From NCBI GenBank assembly GCA_041657885.1, contig JBBABB010000001.1, forward strand, positions 198,926-262,925: a DNA stretch of 64,000 nt, read 5' to 3'. This document shows positions 24-63,374 of the stretch, piece after piece (positions within the stretch are counted from its first letter, which is position 1; every line of letters starts with the position of its first letter). Position numbers and translations under genes: made by a program. The notes beneath the pieces are model-generated. The model was not told where the DNA came from and made no database searches. It worked only from the letters and a program-made list of their open reading frames with translations. Source of the stretch: Minisyncoccota bacterium. Lineage in GTDB: Bacteria > Patescibacteriota > Minisyncoccia > Phycocordibacterales > UBA9973.

Positions 24-1634
24 GTGGCAATAATTTTATCTCTCATTGTAGGTTTTTTTGTTTTTTTTAGAGATAAAAAATCTCTAATCAATAGAATATT
101 ATTTTTTATAATGATTTCTTTTTCATTATGGGTATTTTTTGACCTTATTCTTTGGGCAAATGAGAAAAATTATTTGATAATGTTTTTCTGGTCAATGATG
201 ATAATTGTGGAACCTCTCATTTATGCCTTATGCGTTTATTTTATAGATGTTTTTATTAACAAAAAAGACATCAGTTTTAGAAAAAAATTAGGCATATTTT
301 CTTTATTATTACCTATAATTATTTTACTACCAACAACGTTAACACTTGTTGGATTTGATTTGACAAATTGTTATAGAGAACCAATTGAAGGTTTTATGGC
401 TACTTACTATGTATATATTATTGAAATTATTTATGCTCTTTGGATTTTAGTGTTCGCGATTAGAAAATACAAACAATCTATTTTGGATAAGAAAAAACAG
501 ATCGTGTTTATTACATTAGGAGTAGTTTTATTCTTATTGAGTTTTGTTTCCGGAAATATTATTGGGAGTTTTACTGAAAACTGGACAATAGCTCAGATTG
601 GTCTTTTTAGCATGCCCATTTTTGTGGGATTTTTAGCTTATGCTGTAGTAAAATTTAAGAGTTTTAATATAAAATTAATGGGAACTCAAGTACTTGTATT
701 TGCTTTAGGTTTCTTAGTTTTAGCTATTTTATTTATTCGTAATATTGAGAATGTTAGAATTGTTGTATCTTTTACCTTATTGTTTGTTATTGTTCTAGGT
801 TATGCTCTTATAAAATCTGTTAAAAAAGAGGTGAAGCAACGCGAAAAATTAGAGGAGCTTAGTACTCAACTTGAAAAATCAAAAATGCGTTTAGAAGAAA
901 CAAATCTAAGTCTTGAGGTGGCTAATGAAAAATTGAAAGGTCTTGATAAATTAAAAACTGAGTTCGTTTCATTAGCGTCTCATCAATTACGTAGTCCCTT
1001 AACTGCCATTAAGGGTTACATTTCAATGATTTTGGATGGTGATTATGGAGAAATCAATCCAAAAGCTAAAGAAAAAATGGAATTAGTGGCGGAATCTAGT
1101 AATAGTTTAACTTTAGTTGTTGATGATTTATTAAATGTTGCAAAGATTGAACAAGGTGGAATGAAGTATGAAATGGCTAAATTTGATTTTGGTGAATTAG
1201 TTCTAAATACTGCTAAAGAGTTATCAATTACCGCAGAGAAAAAGGGCTTAAAATTAATTTGTAGTGTTCCACTTGATCAAAAATATTTTGTTAATGGTGA
1301 TAAAGATAAACTTAGACAAGTTCTGGTCAATTTGATTGATAATTCAATTAAATATACTAAAGAAGGTCAAATAGAAGTCAATATACACCTTGAAAAAGGA
1401 AAAATCATATTATCTGTTAAAGATACTGGAGTTGGAATATCTCCCGGAGCAATAGGAACTTTATTTGAAAAGTTTTCTCGTGGAGATGGAGGTAAATTAA
1501 ATACCGGCGGGTCTGGACTTGGTCTTTATCTAGTTAAAGAAATCGCTAAAGCTCACAATGGGCGTGCTTGGGCCGAATCCGAAGGCGTCGGCAAAGGTTC
1601 AACATTCTCTGTTGAACTTGATGAGGCAAATTAA
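24..1634 (+). CDS. membrane sensor histidine kinase
   Basis: N-terminal multi-TM region, coiled coil, H-box SHQLRSPLTAIKGY, HATPase G-box GSGLGLYLVKEIA; GTG start. Confidence 0.85.
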   Translation: MAIILSLIVGFFVFFRDKKSLINRILFFIMISFSLWVFFDLILWANEKNYLIMFFWSMMIIVEPLIYALCVYFIDVFINKKDISFRKKLGIFSLLLPIIILLPTTLTLVGFDLTNCYREPIEGFMATYYVYIIEIIYALWILVFAIRKYKQSILDKKKQIVFITLGVVLFLLSFVSGNIIGSFTENWTIAQIGLFSMPIFVGFLAYAVVKFKSFNIKLMGTQVLVFALGFLVLAILFIRNIENVRIVVSFTLLFVIVLGYALIKSVKKEVKQREKLEELSTQLEKSKMRLEETNLSLEVANEKLKGLDKLKTEFVSLASHQLRSPLTAIKGYISMILDGDYGEINPKAKEKMELVAESSNSLTLVVDDLLNVAKIEQGGMKYEMAKFDFGELVLNTAKELSITAEKKGLKLICSVPLDQKYFVNGDKDKLRQVLVNLIDNSIKYTKEGQIEVNIHLEKGKIILSVKDTGVGISPGAIGTLFEKFSRGDGGKLNTGGSGLGLYLVKEIAKAHNGRAWAESEGVGKGSTFSVELDEAN

Positions 1635-1663
1635 ATTTTTAGTAGTCGGACTACTAAAAATTT
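1633..1663. repeat. REP-like palindrome TTTTTAGTAGTC-G-GACTACTAAAAA between convergent genes
   Basis: perfect palindrome related to the REPs flanking the RAYT at 19.4-20.1 kb; probably also acts as a bidirectional terminator. Confidence 0.55.
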
Positions 1664-1692
1664 AATTTGTGTTGTAATAATTATTTTACGAA

Positions 1693-15254: not shown

Positions 15255-16526
15255 ATGAAAAAATTAGTATTTTATATCATTTTAATATCATTTTTTGTTT
15301 CTATAATACCTGCTCAAGTTACTGCTTTGACGGCAAATGACGTGCGACAGCAAATAGAAGATACAAATAATCAAATAGAAGCTCTGGACAAAGAAATAGC
15401 ACAATATCAAGCTCAAATAGCAGAAACCAGCGCACAATCAAATACACTAGCTAATCTAATTAAAGAATTAACTCTAACCAGAAATAAATTAGTAGCGGAA
15501 AGAACTCAAATCCAGAAAAAAATTACGGCAACCGGTTTGGTCATTGAAACTCTTTCCAACAATATCAGCGACAGAGAGAAATCTATCGCTATATCTAAAA
15601 AATCACTCAGCCAAATGATTAAAGATTTGAATCAAAACGACAATATCCTTGTTATAGAAAGAATCTTATCATTGGGTAATTTTACTGATTTTAGTCGTGA
15701 ATATAATGATATTCTTACTTTAAATGAGAAAATTAGAGAAAATATAATAGATATATCATTAGAAAAAAAAGAACTCCTATCTTCTAAAACACAAAAAGAA
15801 GATGAGCAACAAAACTTAAATACACTCAAAAAAGATCTTACTCAAAAAGAGCAAGTCGTAGTAATAACCAAAAAAGAAAAAGATTCTCTTTTAATTGCCA
15901 CCAAAAACAAAGAAGCCGAATATCAAAAAATACTAGCTGAACAAATAAAAAGAAGAGATTTTTTTGAGAAAGCAATAGCGGATTATGAAGCTCAACTTCA
16001 ATTTATTCTAAACCCAAAATTAATACCTAAAGAAGGTTCAGGAGTTTTATCTTGGCCTCTTAATTCTATTTTAATAACTTCTCCTTATGGTGCAAGGTGG
16101 GGAGCATTTCATTATGGAGTAGATTTTAGAGCATCAATAGGAACCTCTGTGAAAGCCATGGCAGAAGGGGTTGTAGAAGACACAGGAGATACAGATATTG
16201 ATTGCAAAGGTGCATCTTTTGGAAAATGGGTTTTTATTAAATATAATAATGGTTTATCAAGTACCTTTGGACACCTTTCGGTTATATCTGCAAAAAAAGG
16301 GCAAGTTGTAAAGGCAGGAGATGTAGTTGGACTTTCTGGAAATACCGGGTCCTCTACTGCGCCACATTTACATGTTGCAGTGTATGCATCTCTTGGAGTT
16401 AATGTAGAAACGGTCCCTAGTAAAAGTTGTGGCGGTAAAATATTTACACAGCCAATAGCCGCACTAAATGCATATCTTAATCCAATACTTTATTTGCCTA
16501 AAACTACAGCGAGTATGTATAAATAA
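15255..16526 (+). CDS. M23 peptidase with long N-terminal coiled coil (EnvC-like)
   Basis: signal/TM, heptad-rich region, HYGVDF...GNTGSSTAPHLH LytM motifs. Confidence 0.85.
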   Translation: MKKLVFYIILISFFVSIIPAQVTALTANDVRQQIEDTNNQIEALDKEIAQYQAQIAETSAQSNTLANLIKELTLTRNKLVAERTQIQKKITATGLVIETLSNNISDREKSIAISKKSLSQMIKDLNQNDNILVIERILSLGNFTDFSREYNDILTLNEKIRENIIDISLEKKELLSSKTQKEDEQQNLNTLKKDLTQKEQVVVITKKEKDSLLIATKNKEAEYQKILAEQIKRRDFFEKAIADYEAQLQFILNPKLIPKEGSGVLSWPLNSILITSPYGARWGAFHYGVDFRASIGTSVKAMAEGVVEDTGDTDIDCKGASFGKWVFIKYNNGLSSTFGHLSVISAKKGQVVKAGDVVGLSGNTGSSTAPHLHVAVYASLGVNVETVPSKSCGGKIFTQPIAALNAYLNPILYLPKTTASMYK

Positions 16527-16560
16527 TGACAAAATTAATTTTAGATAGTATAATTATGTT

Positions 16561-16878
16561 ATGAATGACAACGAAAAAAAATCAAGGTTACATATACATA
16601 TTGGAGGATTAGTTATTTTAATAATAATTCTTTTGATTTTATTTAAGGTGGATATTATGTCAAAAATACAATCTCCTCAATTTCAGAAAAATATTTCTTA
16701 CGTAGAAGAGCAAGTAAAAACCTTTTGGCAAAAATATGTTTCAATTCCAATAAAATCTAAAACAGGGGATTTGTTTATAAATTTTACAAATAAAGGTCTT
16801 CAACAAATACAAGACAATTTTTCTAAGAATATATTAAAAACACCAAGCACGGAAGATATAGAAAAAGCGTCAAATTAA
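16561..16878 (+). CDS. hypothetical membrane-anchored protein
   Basis: single N-terminal TM, no recognisable homology. Confidence 0.35.
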   Translation: MNDNEKKSRLHIHIGGLVILIIILLILFKVDIMSKIQSPQFQKNISYVEEQVKTFWQKYVSIPIKSKTGDLFINFTNKGLQQIQDNFSKNILKTPSTEDIEKASN

Positions 16879-16984
16879 AACAACTCATAGGCATATTAAA
16901 AGAATTTGTGTTATACTATAGGAGTGTTTAGACACGGGAACAACGTCGAAGTTTCAAGCAAAAAATAATCAAACAAAAAATCGT

Positions 16985-17185
16985 ATGATGACAGGAACAA
17001 TCAAAACTCTTACGGATAAAGGATTTGGATTTATTGCTCGCGAAGGCGAAGTAAAAGATCTTTTCTTTCATTCAAAGGAGCTTGTTGGTGTTACATTTGA
17101 TGAACTCAAAGTAGGCGACGCCGTCTCTTTTGAAGTTACTGAAAGTGAAAAAGGACCAGCCGCTACAAAAGTATCTCTTGCGTAG
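16985..17185 (+). CDS. cold-shock protein (CspA family)
   Basis: GTIKTLTDKGFGFIAREGEVKDLFFH cold-shock domain, RNP motifs. Confidence 0.9.
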   Translation: MMTGTIKTLTDKGFGFIAREGEVKDLFFHSKELVGVTFDELKVGDAVSFEVTESEKGPAATKVSLA

Positions 17186-17196
17186 CTAAAACAAAA

Positions 17197-17236
17197 ACAC
17201 CTCTCACTAATTTAGTGAGAGGTGTTTTTGTTTTTG
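17197..17236 (+). terminator. rho-independent terminator after the csp gene
   Basis: CACCTCTCACT-aattt-AGTGAGAGGTG followed by a T-run. Confidence 0.6.
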
Positions 17237-17309
17237 ACTAAACTTATACTTAGTGATAAAATTTAAGAAAATATAGGAATTTAATAAAATAATAATAAAG
17301 GAGGTAAAA

Positions 17310-17474
17310 ATGCCACAAAAATCAACTAATAAAAAAAGGATAAAATATCCACCGATTGATCTTAATAAATCGACAAAAATTGAAAAGCTTTTTGAGAAAG
17401 CTCAAAAACGGAACGAGCAATCTGAAAGAAACAGAAAAGTTGATCCGAAGTTTCGGTTTGAGGCTGAGGTCTAA
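17310..17474 (+). CDS. small basic hypothetical protein (54 aa), not in the ORF track
   Basis: ATG preceded by AAGGAGGT at -8, an unusually strong SD for this genome; MPQKSTNKKRIKYPPIDL...; followed by a hairpin terminator. Confidence 0.45.
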   Translation: MPQKSTNKKRIKYPPIDLNKSTKIEKLFEKAQKRNEQSERNRKVDPKFRFEAEV

Positions 17475-17490
17475 AACCAATAAAAAATTA

Positions 17491-17526
17491 AAAATCACTA
17501 GTTTCGGTTAGTGATTTTTTATTTTG
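17491..17526 (+). terminator. rho-independent terminator
   Basis: AAAATCACTA-gtttcggt-TAGTGATTTT plus T-run, abutting the 3' end of the convergent tRNA-Leu. Confidence 0.55.
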
Positions 17527-17608
17527 TGCCCGAGGTGGGAATCGAACCCACATCCCTTACGAGACACGATTTTAAGTCGTGCGCGTATACCAGTTCCGCC
17601 ACTCGGGC
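17527..17608 (-). tRNA. tRNA-Leu (anticodon TAA)
   Basis: reverse complement folds as a type II tRNA: acceptor GCCCGAG/CTCGGGC, anticodon loop CTTAAAA, long variable arm, T-loop TTCGATT. Confidence 0.9.
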
Positions 17609-17679
17609 AATGTAAAATATATAACTTCTAAATAATTACATAATTTTCAAAAAATTACAAATTTTGCTATACTCTCTGT

Positions 17680-19131
17680 ATGACAAAAGAGTATTATACA
17701 ACCATAGGTCTAGAGATTCACGCTGAGTTGAACACCAAATCCAAGATGTTTTGTGGGTGTATTAATAACCCCGATGAGAAAACACCCAATGTAAATATTT
17801 GTCCTGTTTGTATGGCTCATCCGGGAACTCTTCCAGTTATCAATAAAAAGGCCGTAGAGAGTGTAATCAAAGTAGGGCTAGCTCTTGGGGCAAATATAGC
17901 CGACTTTACAGAGTTTGACCGTAAGAATTATTTCTATCCAGATATACCGAAAGCTTATCAGATTACTCAATACAAATTCCCAATTGTCTCTGGGGGAGAA
18001 TTAAGAGGTGTTAAAATTACACGAGTCCACCTTGAAGAAGATACTGCAACATCCAAGCATGATAGAGGCAATTATTCACTCGTTGATTTCAATCGTGTCG
18101 GAGTTCCTCTCATGGAGCTTGTTACCGAACCAGTCATCCATTCTGCAAAGCAAGCAGGGGATTTTGGACGTGAGCTACAACTTCTTTTAAAATATCTCGG
18201 GGTCTCTGAAGCCAACATGGAGAAGGGTGAAATGCGAGTAGAACTTAATATTTCAATATCAGAAGATCCAGTTAAACTAGGCACAAAAGTAGAAGTTAAA
18301 AATATTAATTCTTTCCGAGCAATGGAAAAAGCCGCCGAATACGAAATCAAAAGAATGACCGAATTATTAGAAGCTGGCAAGAGAAATGAGATTGTTCAAG
18401 AAACTCGTGGATGGGATGAAAATAAACAGTCCACATTTTCCCAGCGTACAAAAGAAAATGCAAACGATTACAGATATTTCCCAGACCCAGATTTGCCAAA
18501 ACTATTTTTGAGTAAAGTTTTTGATATTAAAAAAATGAGAAGTGAACTTCCAGAACTTCCAGAAGCACGAAGAAATCGATATAGAAATGATTATGGAATT
18601 AAAGATGAAGATATAGAAAGTTATATAACAGACCAAGAATTAGGAAAATATTTTGAAGAAGTAGCCGAATTTTTTCAAGGTATTTCCTCGCGAAGTGAAA
18701 CGGAGAGAGGTGATTCCTTAGAAAAAATTCGCCTTGCTTCAAATTACATAACATCAGATTATTTAGGACTAAAGAAAATACATTTGGAAGTTCAACTTCC
18801 AAATGTTAAAAATTTTGCTGAATTAATACAAATGGTTAGTGATGGAAAAATCTCTTCTCGTGGAGCTAAAGATATCCTTGCTATGATTGTTATAAAAGAT
18901 GAATCACCAATGAAAATTGCCGAAGAAAAAGGTCTAATCCAGAACCACGACGAAGGAGCACTTAAAGAAATAGTTCAAAAAGTCATAGACGCGAATCCTG
19001 CCGTTGTCGCCACTTATAAAGGAGGCAAAGAAAACGCTCTTATGTCTTTAGTTGGACAAGTTATGAAGGAATCTAAAGGCAGTGCTAACCCTGCTCTTGT
19101 TCAGAAATTATTAAAAGAATTATTGACTTAA
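17680..19131 (+). CDS. gatB: Asp-tRNA(Asn)/Glu-tRNA(Gln) amidotransferase subunit B
   Basis: GLEIHAELNTKSKMFCGC...CPVCMAHPGTLPV GatB signature. Confidence 0.93.
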   Translation: MTKEYYTTIGLEIHAELNTKSKMFCGCINNPDEKTPNVNICPVCMAHPGTLPVINKKAVESVIKVGLALGANIADFTEFDRKNYFYPDIPKAYQITQYKFPIVSGGELRGVKITRVHLEEDTATSKHDRGNYSLVDFNRVGVPLMELVTEPVIHSAKQAGDFGRELQLLLKYLGVSEANMEKGEMRVELNISISEDPVKLGTKVEVKNINSFRAMEKAAEYEIKRMTELLEAGKRNEIVQETRGWDENKQSTFSQRTKENANDYRYFPDPDLPKLFLSKVFDIKKMRSELPELPEARRNRYRNDYGIKDEDIESYITDQELGKYFEEVAEFFQGISSRSETERGDSLEKIRLASNYITSDYLGLKKIHLEVQLPNVKNFAELIQMVSDGKISSRGAKDILAMIVIKDESPMKIAEEKGLIQNHDEGALKEIVQKVIDANPAVVATYKGGKENALMSLVGQVMKESKGSANPALVQKLLKELLT

Positions 19132-19132
19132 T

Positions 19133-19354
19133 ATGAAAAAAATTAAACTCGGTAAATATAAACACTATAAAGGGTATATTTGCGAGGTTATTGGAATTGC
19201 CAAAAATAGTGAAGATTATAATGAGGAATTTGTGGTTTACCACCACCCAGATGAAAAAGGCGAGGATCAGCTTTGGATACGACCAATTAAAATATTTAAA
19301 GAAAACGTCGAGACAGAAAATTATAAAGGTCCTAGATTTGAGTATTTAGGTTAG
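19133..19354 (+). CDS. DUF1653-like small protein
   Basis: YKHYKG...VVYHHPDEKGEDQLWIRP pattern. Confidence 0.55.
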   Translation: MKKIKLGKYKHYKGYICEVIGIAKNSEDYNEEFVVYHHPDEKGEDQLWIRPIKIFKENVETENYKGPRFEYLG

Positions 19355-19391
19355 TCTTCACTAATAATTATATTATTACAACACGAAATTA

Positions 19392-19418
19392 AATTTTAGT
19401 AGTTCAACTACTAAAATT
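19392..19418. repeat. REP palindrome overlapping the last three codons of the RAYT gene
   Basis: AATTTTAGTAGTTCAACTACTAAAATT, 13-bp arms. Confidence 0.7.
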
Positions 19419-20058
19419 CTACCTCTTCTTTCCTCTTTAATGTTTCTTTCCATGAAGACTGAGCAAATTCTAGATAATCTTTTTTATTTTTAAAATTAGA
19501 TAAAACTATTTCTTTATTACACAAACCTTTTACTTCGTCTTTTGTGTATTCTTCTAGGCTTGATTTACTAAATTCTGAAATCAAATTTCCATTTTCATTT
19601 CTATTATTAAAATTTACATAGGCACTTAAATTAAGAAGATAATTATTATCTTCTATTATTTTTGACTTGAATCTCCCTTGAAATAAAACACCGGATCTAT
19701 CATACTTTTCATTAAAATATCTAGTATAGCCACCGACACGTTGCATAAATTTTTCAATACCATTATCAACAAGAGGGGAAAGAATGAGATGAAAATGATT
19801 TTTGTTTATACAATAAGCAACAATGGAGACTAGCGGTTTTTTAGTAGTTGAACTACTAAAATTTAACTTTTTCTTTAAATGTTGTTGAAATATACTTTGA
19901 ATCGGATCAATCACATTAAATTCAACAAGACTTTGCATAAATCTTTTAAGGTCTTCGTTGTCTAAAATAATATTTCTTCTATCCGAACCTCTATTATAAA
20001 TATGATAATATTTTCCTACTTCAAAAATATGATCTCTCATAGGATTATTATACCACAT
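19411..20058 (-). CDS. REP-associated tyrosine transposase (RAYT; IS200-like Y1 HUH, COG1943 family)
   Basis: YHIYNRGSDRRNI, HUH motif NHFHLIL, catalytic region YTRYFNEKYDRSGVLFQGRFKS...NYLLNLSAYVNFN. Confidence 0.85.
   Translation of the reverse strand: MWYNNPMRDHIFEVGKYYHIYNRGSDRRNIILDNEDLKRFMQSLVEFNVIDPIQSIFQQHLKKKLNFSSSTTKKPLVSIVAYCINKNHFHLILSPLVDNGIEKFMQRVGGYTRYFNEKYDRSGVLFQGRFKSKIIEDNNYLLNLSAYVNFNNRNENGNLISEFSKSSLEEYTKDEVKGLCNKEIVLSNFKNKKDYLEFAQSSWKETLKRKEEVEF
19839..19861. repeat. REP palindrome inside the RAYT coding sequence (encodes FSSSTTKK)
   Basis: TTTTAGTAGTTGAACTACTAAAA in frame within the CDS. Confidence 0.7.
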
Positions 20059-20063
20059 TTATA

Positions 20064-20090
20064 AATTTTAGTAGTTGAACTACTAAAATT
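20064..20090. repeat. REP palindrome 6 nt upstream of the RAYT start codon
   Basis: AATTTTAGTAGTTGAACTACTAAAATT. Confidence 0.7.
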
Positions 20091-20128
20091 TTGTAATTTA
20101 TGATAATAAAGTGATATAATAGAAATAT

Positions 20129-21181
20129 ATGGAAAATATAAAAAAAATAAGAGTAGCTATTAATGGTTTTGGGAGAATTGGTCGGGCATTTTTGAAAATT
20201 GCTTGGAAGAGAGATGATATTGAAATAGTCGCGGTGAATGACCTCGGCTCAATTGAAAGCTTAGCGTATTTACTCCGACACGACACTGTTTATCGAGATT
20301 GGGAACATCCCGTGCGAATTGAAGATAATTCTAACGGGACAAGTAAGTTTCTTATAATTGATGAAAAGAAAGTTCAGTTCATTTCAGAAAAAGATACAAC
20401 CAAACTTCCTTGGAAAGATTTAGGTATTGACGTTGTGGTTGAGTCAACTGGTCTCTTCACTTCTTATGATAAAGCAAAATTCCACATTGATTGTGGAGCT
20501 AAAAAAGTTGTAATAAGTGCACCATCAAAAGGTGCTGAAAGCACAGTCCACGGCGAAACTATTCTCTTAGGTATTAATGAAGAAAAATTTGGCTCTTGTG
20601 ATATCACTTCAAATGCTTCTTGTACAACTAATGCAGCAAGTCCACTCATCGCGATTCTCCATGAAGCAATTGGAGTAGAGAAGGCAATTTTAAATACAGT
20701 TCATGGATATACTGCAACTCAAGCTCTTGTTGATGGGCCAAGTAAAAAAGACCTTCGCGAAGGTCGTGCAGCCGCTTGCAACATCGTTCCAAGCTCAACT
20801 GGTGCTGCTATTGCAGTAACTGAAGCTTTTCCAGAGCTTACAGGACTATTTGACGGTATATCTATCCGCGTCCCGGTTCCAGCAGGTTCAATTGTGGATA
20901 TTACATTCATTGCAAAAAGAGATACAACAAAAGAAGAAGTAAATAAAATACTAAAAAAAGCATCCAAAGACCCACACTGGGAAAAACTATTTGCAGTTAC
21001 AGAGGATAATCTTGTGTCCTCGGATATATTAGGCGAAAGTCATGCTTGTATCGCAGACCTAGAAATGACTCGCGTTGTCGGAGGTAATCTCGTAAAAGTC
21101 CTCGGCTGGTACGATAACGAAATGGGGTATACATACACGCTTGTTGACCATGTAGTTAAAACAGGATTAACTATTAAATAA
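20129..21181 (+). CDS. gap: glyceraldehyde-3-phosphate dehydrogenase
   Basis: INGFGRIGR NAD-binding motif, SNASCTTN active-site motif. Confidence 0.93.
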   Translation: MENIKKIRVAINGFGRIGRAFLKIAWKRDDIEIVAVNDLGSIESLAYLLRHDTVYRDWEHPVRIEDNSNGTSKFLIIDEKKVQFISEKDTTKLPWKDLGIDVVVESTGLFTSYDKAKFHIDCGAKKVVISAPSKGAESTVHGETILLGINEEKFGSCDITSNASCTTNAASPLIAILHEAIGVEKAILNTVHGYTATQALVDGPSKKDLREGRAAACNIVPSSTGAAIAVTEAFPELTGLFDGISIRVPVPAGSIVDITFIAKRDTTKEEVNKILKKASKDPHWEKLFAVTEDNLVSSDILGESHACIADLEMTRVVGGNLVKVLGWYDNEMGYTYTLVDHVVKTGLTIK

Positions 21182-21995
21182 TTTTTCCTTTAAATACAAA
21201 AGTAGTAGGGCCACGTAATATTATGTGGCCTTGCTCGTTTTGTGATAGATAAAGTTTTCCACCTGGGAATTCTAAAGTTATTTCTCTGTCAATTACATAG
21301 GACGGTCCTATGTAATCTTTTATAAGAATGGCAAAAACTGCACAAGCGCCGGTGCCACAAGCAAGCGTCTCCCCACAGCCACGTTCCCAGACTTTGACTT
21401 TGTAGTAGTCATCTTTTATTTTTTCAACAAATTCCATATTTATTTTATTGGGGAAGTGCGGATCGTTTTCTATTTTAGGCCCAATTGATTTTATATCTAT
21501 TTTATCTAAATTATCAACCATTGTTACTGTATGCGGATTCCCCATAGATATACAATCAAAAGTAAAACCTTCTAGATTGATGGATTCGCTTGGGAAATCA
21601 CAGCTTTCAAAAATTGGTGTTCCCATATTTACGGAGAAGGTGCCATCAGCATTTACTTTGATGTTTTTGATTCCAGCTCGAGTATCTATATTTAATTCTT
21701 TTAAATTAGAATCCTGCTCGCCGGTGAGGAGGGTTGTTTGCTCTAAAAAGAATTTGGCAGTACACCTTGCTCCATTCCCACACATTTCGGCTTCTGTCCC
21801 ATCGGAATTATAATAATTCATAAAACAATCTGCTTTGTTTGATGATTCGAGTAATATTACTCCATCTGCTCCAATACCAAAATGCCTATCACAAATGAAT
21901 TTAATATAATCGGGGGTAAATTTAATTTCACCCTTTAAATTATTTATCATTATAAAGTCATTACCTGCACCGTGATATTTGTGAAATTCAGTCAT
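21174..21995 (-). CDS. dapF: diaminopimelate epimerase
   Basis: GAGNDFI, CGNGARC and ACGTGACA motifs. Confidence 0.9.
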   Translation of the reverse strand: MTEFHKYHGAGNDFIMINNLKGEIKFTPDYIKFICDRHFGIGADGVILLESSNKADCFMNYYNSDGTEAEMCGNGARCTAKFFLEQTTLLTGEQDSNLKELNIDTRAGIKNIKVNADGTFSVNMGTPIFESCDFPSESINLEGFTFDCISMGNPHTVTMVDNLDKIDIKSIGPKIENDPHFPNKINMEFVEKIKDDYYKVKVWERGCGETLACGTGACAVFAILIKDYIGPSYVIDREITLEFPGGKLYLSQNEQGHIILRGPTTFVFKGKII

Positions 21996-39881: not shown

Positions 39882-41378
<1,497 letters not shown>

Positions 41379-41383
41379 TTAAT

Positions 41384-41474
41384 TTCTCCCCTCCTTACCA
41401 AGGAGGGGAATGAGGGGAGGTTCTTAATTAATTAGGAACCCCTCCCCAGCCCTCCCCTTGGTAAGGGGAGGGGG
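41384..41474. repeat. G+C-rich triple-hairpin element (copy B) between atpD and atpC
   Basis: differs from copy A at only a few positions. Confidence 0.65.
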
Positions 41475-43079: not shown

Positions 43080-43856
43080 GTGAATAAGAACCCTAAGGCA
43101 AAACTAAATGATCTATTAAAAGATTTAAAACAAAAAGAAAACAAAGAGAAAGCGAAAATTTTGGCTGGGTTTTTCAAAACAGGCCCTGGTCAATATGGTG
43201 AAGGGGATTTATTTCTGGGGATAACTGTCCCCGAATCTCGCAAACTCGCTTTGAGGTATTCAGAGCTTCCACTTTCAGATATATCCAAACTTATCAAAAA
43301 CAAATACCACGAAGCCCGACTCGTCGCCCTCCTAATCCTCGTCCATAAATACAAAGTTGCCTCTACTTTGCATAGGTCTGACCTATGCAAAACTATTGCT
43401 GATTTTTATTTGAAACACACTAAATATATTAACAATTGGGATTTAGTAGACCTTTCAGCTCATTATATTGTTGGGGATTATTTATACTCCCACCACCTCG
43501 CCCAACGGGCACTCCTCCTCAGGCAGGAGGAGACTAAATACAGGACGGTCCTATATGGTTTGGCAAAATCGAAGAACCTTTGGGAACGCCGAATCGCTAT
43601 TATTTCTACATTTGCATTTATATACAAAGGGGAACCAGAGTGGACTTTCCACTTAGTCAAAATGCTCTTAAATGACTCACATGACCTTATCCATAAGACC
43701 TGCGGTTGGATGCTTCGCGAAGTAGGGAAACGTGTGTCAGAAAAAGAATTGACAACTTTCCTAGATATCCACAATACTCAAATGCCTCGCACAATGCTCC
43801 GCTATGCTATTGAACGACTCCCCAAAAATAAAAGGTTTTATTATCTAAATAAATAA
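43080..43856 (+). CDS. DNA alkylation repair protein (AlkD-like HEAT-repeat glycosylase family)
   Basis: ...WDLVDLSAHYIVGDY...KTCGWMLREVGKR... matches the DNA_alkylation family pattern. Confidence 0.75.
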   Translation: MNKNPKAKLNDLLKDLKQKENKEKAKILAGFFKTGPGQYGEGDLFLGITVPESRKLALRYSELPLSDISKLIKNKYHEARLVALLILVHKYKVASTLHRSDLCKTIADFYLKHTKYINNWDLVDLSAHYIVGDYLYSHHLAQRALLLRQEETKYRTVLYGLAKSKNLWERRIAIISTFAFIYKGEPEWTFHLVKMLLNDSHDLIHKTCGWMLREVGKRVSEKELTTFLDIHNTQMPRTMLRYAIERLPKNKRFYYLNK

Positions 43857-50158: not shown

Positions 50159-50200
50159 AGATAGAGCCTTAGACTCTATCTAGAGTCTAAGGCTCTATCT
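50159..50200. terminator. 42-nt perfect palindrome between convergent genes (bidirectional terminator or binding site)
   Basis: AGATAGAGCCTTAGACTCTA-tc-TAGAGTCTAAGGCTCTATCT, 20-bp arms. Confidence 0.6.
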
Positions 50201-63135: not shown

Positions 63136-63374
63136 GTGAAAGCGCAGTGATATTTTGTGAACACACAAAATTATGAGCTGAGGTCGCGAGTACTTACGTA
63201 AAATTTGAGTTTACAAAAAATTTTACTTAGTAACTCGTGATCACAACTATATATAAATGCGAAGCATACAATTTATAGTTTGTAGATAGGGGCTTAGCCC
63301 CTATCTACAGTCAACTAAACAAAAAGTCTCAACCTTATTGGGCTGAGACTAGTGTTATTTTATCTGACAGAGGA

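Follow-up and report, generated by a model that had tools for sequence, protein, structure and literature searches.

The locus

A gene for a RAYT-like Y1 HUH nuclease lies between gap and gatB in the 64-kb stretch of DNA analysed here (the window). Copies of a palindrome are found on both sides of this gene and again within it. The features of the locus, together with a related palindrome elsewhere in the window, are as follows.

19411..20040, minus strand: RAYT-like Y1 HUH nuclease gene, 209 aa from the likely start M7; the longest open reading frame (ORF) extends to 20058
20047..20055, minus strand: extended -10 box TGgTATAAT, 6 nt before the ATG at 20040
20063..20091, no strand: upstream copy, a perfect 14-1-14 palindrome in the -35/spacer position of the predicted RAYT promoter
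19839..19861, no strand: internal copy at site 1, 11-1-11, in frame, encoding N66-F-S-S-S-T-T-K73
19573..19593, minus strand: relic at site 2, N156-GNLIS-E162, decayed, with a 5-bp stem GAAAT-TTG-ATTTC
19392..19418, no strand: downstream copy, a perfect 13-1-13 palindrome that contains the TAG stop codon (19411-19413)
19366..19391, minus strand: tail TTTAATTTCGTGTTGTAATAAT 3′ of the downstream palindrome, common by alignment to the solo copy at 1627-1692
1627..1692, plus strand: solo related palindrome, 21-1-21, with tail; 2 compensated differences; core TAGTAGTCGGACTACTA

The palindromes that flank the gene read AATTTTAGTAGTT-N-AACTACTAAAATT. An earlier note on this DNA had described them as a bracketing pair. 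Both copies are present and perfect (19392-19418 and 20063-20091), and the downstream one covers the stop codon as claimed, but a third exact copy at the gene, located at 19839-19861 inside the ORF, had been missed. The upstream copy had been placed 6 nt from the ATG. It does lie just upstream, but 5 nt separate it from the ORF's first ATG and 23 nt from the likely start at 20040-20038, with the -10 box in between. A search of the window using the pattern TTTTAGTAGTTNAACTACTAAAA with up to 3 mismatches yielded 4 matches, compared with 0.02 expected from shuffled sequences. Folded as single-stranded DNA, the window copies gave −6.9 to −17.2 kcal/mol (z −3.9 to −10.6), with −17.2 kcal/mol and z −10.6 for the solo copy at 1627-1669.

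The predicted nuclease

The ORF at 19411-20058 (minus strand) encodes 215 aa and contains the motifs YHIYNRG, HFHLIL and YTRYFNEKYDRSGVLFQGRFKS (FQGRFKS), all of them RAYT hallmarks that had been ascribed to it before. Counted from the first Met of the ORF, the catalytic residues are H88-F-H90, Y147 and N151. In a profile search the protein matched Pfam PF01797 (Y1_Tnp) at 35.8 bits, above the cut-off of 23 (E 1e-8), a check that the earlier note had proposed. With the NCBIfam equivalog REP_Tyr_transpos (NF047646) it scored 21.6 bits, below the cut-off of 80. A homologue search at E up to 0.001 recovered 339 relatives, the best 120 of which share 50-100% identity; several of the homologues bear the name RayT from JGI. 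An exhaustive search retrieved 14,029 cluster representatives at E up to 0.001, 3,305 at 1e-10 and 119 at 1e-30. Since the homologues begin at the second Met of the ORF (MRxH, 209 aa), the ATG at 20040-20038 is the likely start.

Across an alignment of 117 homologues, H88, H90, Y147 and N151 never vary, an argument that the nuclease chemistry has been kept. The same alignment served as input for an AlphaFold (AF2) model with a pLDDT of 88.6 and a pTM of 0.84, in which only residues 1-6 and 67-71 are of low confidence. When this model was compared with the PDB using Foldseek, the top match was 4ER8_A, E. coli TnpA_REP bound to a REP hairpin (E 7e-6), followed by the TnpA proteins of IS608 and ISDra2. 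A profile search of PDB sequences with the nuclease gave zero matches at E up to 1. In an hhalign comparison with E. coli RayT, HFH pairs with HMH, FQGRF with WQPRF, and Y147 with the Tyr of YIYINP, so that the alignment of catalytic Tyr and HUH residues, also suggested as a check, bears out the assignment. Motifs and predicted fold support a RAYT-type Y1 HUH enzyme that is intact, with predicted nuclease activity.

A palindrome at four fixed places

In a scan of one genome per species, relatives of the nuclease were found in at least 568 GTDB species genomes, essentially all of them from Patescibacteria, and the view that such a system is unusual in a small AT-rich genome can no longer be held. 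The layout of the palindromes was counted in the best 80 of these at least 568 loci. Nearly all of the 80 are titled as Patescibacteria lineages, with a few MAGs under other labels, and 75 of them have a cognate palindrome. A de novo scan without any key, covering the gene and 200 nt on either side for perfect palindromes with a stem of at least 8 and a loop of at most 5, found 63 upstream, 44 at site 1 (+130 to +275), 26 at site 2 (+395 to +520) and 61 around the stop codon; only 14 fell elsewhere. With 2 mismatches allowed, the cognate palindrome was present upstream in 66/75 loci, at site 1 in 51/75, at site 2 in 28/75 and downstream in 60/75. All four sites are filled in 14/75, and most of the 75 loci have 3-5 cognate copies per gene. 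In most loci the inner arm of the downstream copy starts within ∼30 nt of the stop codon, which the palindrome often supplies. The presence of the palindrome at fixed places is a family rule and not a peculiarity of the window locus.

The family consensus is AACTTGG-NN-GCT-N-AGC-NN-CCAAGTT; its outer stem is conserved, its inner stem variable. Most of the palindromes are perfect as far as the centre, with the conserved bases (ACTTRG/CYAAGT) lying within the paired arms. In 123 of 205 copies, a single central base is all that breaks the dyad symmetry. Literature searches returned no paper linking REPs with Patescibacteria and none on REPs inside RAYT genes; neither the in-frame internal copy nor the four-site layout is described in the literature searched.

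In-frame sites inside the coding sequence

The centre of the palindrome falls on codon position 2 in all 28 loci with a copy at site 2 and in 42 of the 51 with a copy at site 1. The in-frame palindromes encode the heptapeptide L-G-x-x-x-[STP]-K, and none of the 117 aligned homologues lacks it at site 1 or site 2, that is, no empty site was seen. The site-2 segment is 11 aa long in 97/117 homologues, palindromic or not; the flanks of site 1 differ in length, from 15 to 27 aa. A twin heptapeptide, at least 6/7 identical and ∼90 residues apart, was detected in 40/119 close and 13/139 distant homologues, compared with 0 and 1, respectively, in shuffled controls. The layout is kept down to homologues at 35-45% identity. 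Because the codon phase is fixed, no site is empty and distant homologues have the twin heptapeptide, the internal sites are, as judged from sequence, ancestral and built in rather than sporadic. The window segment at site 2 has the length and position of the second in-frame palindrome of other lineages, and since this segment keeps its length whether palindromic or not, we read it as a decayed copy. In E. coli K-12, the flanks of rayT contain REPs and the gene itself contains none.

These data bear on whether the copies are passengers. A cis-acting RAYT might seed REPs nearby, and within the gene only those in frame in two permissive loops would survive, with no role at all and renewed by the same activity (molecular drive). 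Site 1 does encode a loop that is disordered in the AF2 model (residues 67-71, pLDDT below 50) and has flanks of variable length, in-frame gains in gatB recur at the same two loops, and the window lineage shows no visible harm from the decay of its site 2. However, this reading does not sit well with the lack of any homologue with an empty site 1 or 2, the fixed codon phase, the constant length of site 2 with or without a palindrome, or a layout that holds to homologues at 35-45% identity. The promoter and stop-codon positions are also too regular for random seeding. We consider passenger copies quite unlikely.

Palindrome and promoter

The extended -10 box lies only 6 nt before the ATG at 20040, so the RAYT mRNA is probably leaderless. 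A hexamer that agrees with TATAAT at 5/6 positions or more was found 3-13 nt ahead of the conserved ATG in 43/71 loci, compared with ∼10% at random positions, and a perfect TATAAT in 19/71, compared with 0.8%. The spacing between box and ATG peaks at 6-7 nt, and 19 of the 43 boxes have the TGn extension. These statistics were computed apart from the promoter scanner, which left the RAYT promoter uncalled, as there is no -35 match, and called a divergent gap promoter (TTGTAA-18-TATAAT at 20091-20120) whose -35 abuts the end of the upstream palindrome. In most of the 43 loci the inner arm of the palindrome ends 1-17 nt upstream of the -10 box. The upstream copy probably occupies the -35/spacer position, upstream of the -10 box, and is thus likely untranscribed.

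The position of this copy speaks against palindromes that would work in the transcript without the protein, whether to terminate it, stabilise it or slow its translation. Such elements would be consistent with the terminator-like position of the downstream copy and with the transcription of sites 1 and 2. However, the upstream copy is probably not transcribed, there is no tolerance of G-U pairs, a terminator scan gave no match, and the palindrome class tracks the RAYT paralogue. A search of Rfam identified no family; its one sub-threshold chance match, to a plant microRNA model, covers a long hairpin inside gatB. RNA structure as the main explanation was rejected on the position of the -10 box and the near absence of G-T pairs, and an RNA-level role appears very improbable.

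Concerted change of the copies

Copies at one locus are far more alike than copies at different loci: for pairs of different sites within a locus the inner 8-nt arm is the same in 77%, compared with 0.4% between loci. Compensatory changes were found at 11 of 12 stem pairs, with 197 cells compared with 56 in shuffles (56 representative copies); slid controls were 28-51% paired. The inner 8 bp belonged to the search key, so the pairing percentages of the inner stem are true by construction; stem pairs 9-11, outside the key, are still 60-93% paired. G-T pairs are almost absent in the stems.

A few loci look like intermediates. Locus L019 has TGGGAGCT in every arm, and L040, at 78% protein identity, has TAGGAGCT in 5/6 arms with the old base in one. 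In L007, compared with L005 (83% identity), the same uncompensated C-to-T change beside the loop is present in all three copies. Hybrid arms occur in L013, in L023 and in the upstream copy of L028. This suggests that the intermediates are new palindrome variants in mid-spread, arm by arm. The unpaired centres within a locus are the same or the reverse complement of each other and rarely anything else, which suggests that whole units are copied between sites in either orientation. An inverted orientation of the flanking copies had been reported earlier, and at the window locus this is correct (centre C versus G). As a rule for the family it was rejected, since the centres of upstream and downstream copies are the same in 29 cases, inverted in 21 and otherwise related in 5. 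Covariation and centres would also fit selection by a symmetric dimer reading the DNA as a duplex, and selection on four binding sites could give similar covariation.

The latter point leads to a different reading, namely a domesticated DNA-binding regulator. The Y1 protein or some other factor would read the palindromes as double-stranded operators, with no transposition involved. The promoter copy would be the main operator, and the intragenic and stop-codon copies would be auxiliary ones that contribute to repression via looping. Auxiliary-operator looping is known from lacO2 and galOI. Several observations would fit: in most loci the palindrome lies right against the -10 box, the dyad is perfect to one central base in the 123 copies mentioned above, centres are equivalent under strand swap, G-T pairs are nearly missing, few copies lie elsewhere, and some solo copies in metagenomes lie just upstream of start codons. 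However, HUH and Tyr residues that are invariant in 117 homologues argue against a pure operator system, and identity over 21-29 bp at four sites is rare for operators. The uncompensated change in all copies that separates L005 and L007, together with the hybrid arms, resembles copying rather than independent selection, and unrelated ORFs contain roughly half of the dispersed copies in frame, often as doublets. We regard the operator reading, including its looping arrangement, as unlikely.

Inheritance and dispersal

The order gap-RAYT-gatB is common to the window and to loci L001, L002, L003, L161 and L162. Identity to relatives is 90/84% for RAYT, 88/82% for gap and 82/81% for gatB. The gap gene adjoins the RAYT gene in the distant loci L021 and L068 as well. 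No RAYT paralogue was found within the 64-kb window. Several MAGs hold two or three diverged paralogues of the family, and in JAHITU01 the three (L022, L023 and L070) each have a different palindrome. Because the gene is single-copy in the window and syntenic, with a divergence like that of gap and gatB, it behaves, by its sequence and context, as a domesticated, vertically inherited RAYT and not as an insertion sequence.

An autonomous IS200-like insertion sequence would be a Y1 transposase between left- and right-end hairpins, mobile as a 700-bp unit. The Y1 fold, the hairpins that hug both ends of a unit of ∼700 bp, and the 2-3 family members in some MAGs are what such an element would show. 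In contrast, the window has one copy, relatives carry the gene in the same gap-gatB slot next to equally diverged housekeeping proteins, and the paralogues within a MAG are diverged and have different palindromes, so they are not recent copies. The protein, at 209 aa, also has extra elements compared with the 125-152 residues of the matched solved IS200-type transposases. Both this reading, to which we give very little credence, and the RNA-level one are disfavoured because they conflict with the synteny and promoter data. A TnpB-type insertion sequence had been suspected at 40023-41378 from flanking repeats; this candidate was rejected, as the ORF is that of ATP synthase beta.

Outside the gene, the flanks of relatives contain 42 cognate copies in 0.98 Mb (4.25 per 100 kb), compared with 0.81 per 100 kb for a non-cognate class. 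The dispersed copies divide about equally between intergenic positions and in-frame positions in long ORFs, often as doublets. In L043, gatB contains three in-frame copies of the palindrome of its own lineage, two of which form a 14-aa insertion. Gains in frame at the same two loops of gatB were repeated, both in distant lineages and between near-identical strains, and in-frame palindromes also occur in a GTPase-like gene. A metagenome scan with TTTAGTAGTNNNACTACTAAA gave 86 stretches, from a collection that evidently does not include the source contig, as those stretches lacked the site at 1637, so that densities are rough; on some of the metagenome contigs solo copies lie just upstream of start codons. 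Mosaic bounds between the window and L161 lie near 17400, 18625 and 20125, with no convincing tie of these recombination breakpoints to the RAYT palindromes.

Outside the RAYT gene, the window itself has one extra, diverged copy in 64 kb. Since this copy number looks low, the REP-spreading role appears weak. The copy is the related distant palindrome that the earlier note had located near 1633-1663; it extends over 1627-1669, between a histidine-kinase gene and cysS, which are convergent, and overlaps the stop codon of the kinase. A 25-nt tail is common to this solo copy and the 3′ copy of the RAYT gene, and at metagenome locus L096 the same tail TTTAATTTCGTGTTGTAATAAT also follows a palindrome. 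In the distant relative L033 a RAYT gene lies at the 3′ end of cysS. In view of this neighbour and of the common tail, the solo copy may be the relic of a lost paralogue rather than a fresh insertion. Active or recent dissemination, which the copy had been taken to indicate, finds thin support in a single diverged copy that is perhaps such a relic.

Comparison with known systems

The closest known system is E. coli TnpA_REP/RayT with its REP-BIME elements (4ER8; Nunvar 2010 PMC2817692; Quentin 2018 PMC6006769), which has the same Y1 HUH fold and is the best structural match. Its HUH and Y-x-x-x-N motifs align with those of the window protein, and it too is encoded by a single-copy, vertically inherited chromosomal gene flanked by a cognate palindromic repeat. 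The window protein is, however, only ∼11-21% identical to E. coli RayT and has an extra helix and loop between alpha1 and the HUH strand as well as a C-terminal extension. A REP forms a short, imperfect hairpin, and a conserved tetranucleotide 5′ of the hairpin foot stays unpaired (PMC6006769), whereas the repeats of the window family are perfect palindromes of low copy number without an unpaired GTAG-type tag. Unlike in E. coli rayT, copies lie inside the ORF and the promoter is fused to the palindrome. The description of the locus as a REP-RAYT unit is therefore right as to a single-copy, syntenic Y1 HUH enzyme with its own palindrome on both sides, but the repeats are not classical REPs.

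RAYTs in general are single-copy and vertically inherited, unlike insertion sequences, and REPIN families occupy extragenic DNA, with tens to hundreds of members per genome (Bertels 2017 PMC5581495). The abundance of 16-mers from RAYT flanks is ∼57 for Group 2 and ∼140 for Group 3, compared with ∼5 for housekeeping genes (PMC5581495). As in the REPIN-RAYT systems of Pseudomonas and enterobacteria (Bertels and Rainey 2011 PMC3116915; PMC5581495), the transposase here is single-copy and vertical and its repeats are lineage-specific; each paralogue has its own repeat class, and doublets occur in L032, L039 and L062. In contrast to REPINs, the copies here amount to ∼4 per 100 kb in the flanks, about half are in frame, and they are densest on the RAYT gene itself. 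With respect to the extragenic location expected of RAYT repeats, one of the three copies at the window gene lies in frame in the ORF. Taken as sequence, the palindrome system appears to work like a REP/RAYT pair that departs from the known ones in repeat form, location and equivalog score.

The TnpA proteins of IS200/IS605 elements (IS608, ISDra2) have the Y1 HUH fold, with hairpins near both gene ends. The window gene differs in being neither multi-copy nor mobile as a unit and in its longer protein. IS200/IS605 elements have distinct subterminal hairpins at the left and right ends, and a guide tetranucleotide determines where they are cleaved; here the same perfect palindrome is found at both ends, and no cleavage motif could be made out.

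Rickettsia palindromic elements lie in frame in protein-coding genes; they are ∼100-150 bp long and have no linked transposase. They are mentioned in PMC1779305. As with those elements, the in-frame palindromes seen here are tolerated in housekeeping genes (gatB, GTPase-like) and add loop residues. In contrast to them, the present copies are 21-29 bp long and are linked to one particular nuclease gene, with which they evolve in concert.

Interpretation

The reading that we prefer, with a probability of about one half, is that of a vertically inherited, single-copy RAYT-type nuclease of a large Patescibacteria-specific subfamily that is wired to its cognate palindrome at four fixed addresses. 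These are over the promoter, at codon block 1 (a surface loop), at codon block 2 (decayed here) and at the stop codon. The enzyme would act as a dimer and recognise the palindrome, most likely as a single-stranded DNA hairpin, in the manner of E. coli TnpA_REP. The shape of the palindromes is at least as well explained if a symmetric dimer reads them as double-stranded sites, because in most of them the symmetry runs up to a single central base, and pairing that close to the centre cannot form in a hairpin. Occupancy of the promoter copy would feed back on transcription. The copies would be kept alike by repeated site-to-site copying of the whole unit, arms and centre, in either orientation. 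This copying could be mediated by the enzyme or proceed by short-patch conversion, with new variants spreading arm by arm, and the enzyme may occasionally seed copies of the palindrome elsewhere.

A more far-reaching proposal, which we put forward as tentative and rather doubtful, is that nuclease and palindrome form a self-homogenising address system. A few fixed genomic positions, namely the promoter of the enzyme, two of its codon blocks, its stop codon and loops in gatB and similar housekeeping genes, would be rewritten again and again to whichever palindrome variant is current, and the copies in the ORF would be protected masters, lost only with the enzyme.

The role of RAYTs for their hosts and the long-term matching between REPs and RAYTs are open questions, and in this family the matching can be read from sequence. 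Two of the four fixed copies are under coding constraint, and intermediates show the spread of variants arm by arm. The fusion of promoter and palindrome offers a directly testable feedback circuit, and the in-frame copies, which can be recoded synonymously, provide a built-in reporter. For the organisms, the finding is that streamlined genomes of the candidate phyla radiation (CPR) tolerate palindromes linked to a nuclease within their essential genes, a point of relevance to annotation, strain-level variation and the evolution of protein loops in CPR organisms.

Palindromes within coding sequences

The gatB gene, which neighbors the RAYT gene (the Y1 HUH nuclease ORF), itself contains palindromic sequence.

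Features of gatB in the window
17680-19131: gatB
18652-18744: hairpin of ~90 nt, just upstream of the in-frame palindrome
18780-18806: in-frame perfect palindrome ACATTTGGAAGTTCAACTTCCAAATGT, encoding IHLEVQLPNV

The in-frame palindrome differs from the RAYT palindrome, the cognate perfect palindrome at the RAYT gene, by two compensated changes per arm. At the same position the gatB genes of L001 and L002, two loci of RAYT relatives, have a sequence of equal length that is not palindromic; both also lack the 12-amino acid insertion (QGISSRSETERG) found within the ~90-nt hairpin of the window. In gatB of a further locus (L043 14470-15912), the RAYT palindrome belonging to that lineage is present three times in frame, and two of these copies constitute a 14-amino acid insertion. 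At the site of this insertion, a 33-nt imperfect-palindrome insertion that is absent from the window occurs in gatB of L161, whose strain is nearly identical to the window organism.

Palindromes of the same class as the window's RAYT palindrome, TTTAGTAGT-NNN-ACTACTAAA, were also found in frame in a GTPase-like gene of metagenome contigs from different samples (L129, L142, L156, L085, L113, L138 and L140), where the copies occupy one orthologous position, IILTKTDVLD-FSSPTTK-KSFEK. In other contigs, orthologous sites just upstream of start codons bear this class (L098/L119/L106 and L109/L110/L127). In the Moranbacteria-type loci L032, L039, L053, L062, L065 and L068, palindrome doublets are present at gene-associated sites. 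Including those at site 1, an in-frame position inside the RAYT ORF, the doublets form REPIN-like super-palindromes of 37-44 nt.

Sequence context of the RAYT gene and of the solo copy

Comparison of window positions 16439-20821 with L161 revealed a mosaic of identity.

Identity of the window to L161
16439-17400: 100%
17400-18625: ~85%
18626-20125: 100%; 3' part of gatB, DUF1653 ORF, RAYT gene and all three palindromes
From 20126 into gap: ~85%

The mosaic resembles tracts of recombination among strains that occur together. The palindrome-containing spacer is common to gap and the divergent RAYT gene, and the gap promoter lies in this region.

20091-20131 region: promoter of gap, TTGTAA-18-TATAAT; a TG precedes its -10 box

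The gap ATG is at 20129, 8 nt past the end of the promoter. Like the RAYT gene, gap looks leaderless.

The solo palindrome and its tail (1627-1692) are located at the 3' end of cysS. Since the RAYT gene of a distant locus, L033 (3662-5826), adjoins the cysS 3' end at the equivalent position, the solo copy may be the mark of a lost RAYT paralogue.

Other palindromes in the window

39887-39972 and 41387-41472: composite palindromic element, GC-rich and ~90 nt long, present twice
17188-17234: perfect palindrome with a 23-bp stem, directly after the cold-shock-protein gene (16985-17185)
21292-21316 and 43367-43391: pair 1, CATAGGAC-G-GTCCTATG in dapF and the similar CATAGGTC-T-GACCTATG in another ORF
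50159-50200 and 63281-63309: pair 2, AGATAGAGCC... and the similar AGATAGGGGC...

The GC-rich copies take up the atpG-atpD and atpD-atpC spacers and have the sequence TCCCCTCCTTACCAAGGAGGGGA ... CCCTCCCCTTrGTAAGGGGAGGG, with a long inverted repeat at the center. The element looks REPIN- or MITE-like and has no sequence relation to the RAYT palindrome. The palindrome at 17188-17234, whose position is terminator-like, is likewise unrelated to it. Pair 2 is similar to the RAYT palindrome of locus L078. Together, the sequences of pairs 1 and 2 suggest further classes of repeat in the genome of the window organism, and perhaps additional RAYT paralogues.
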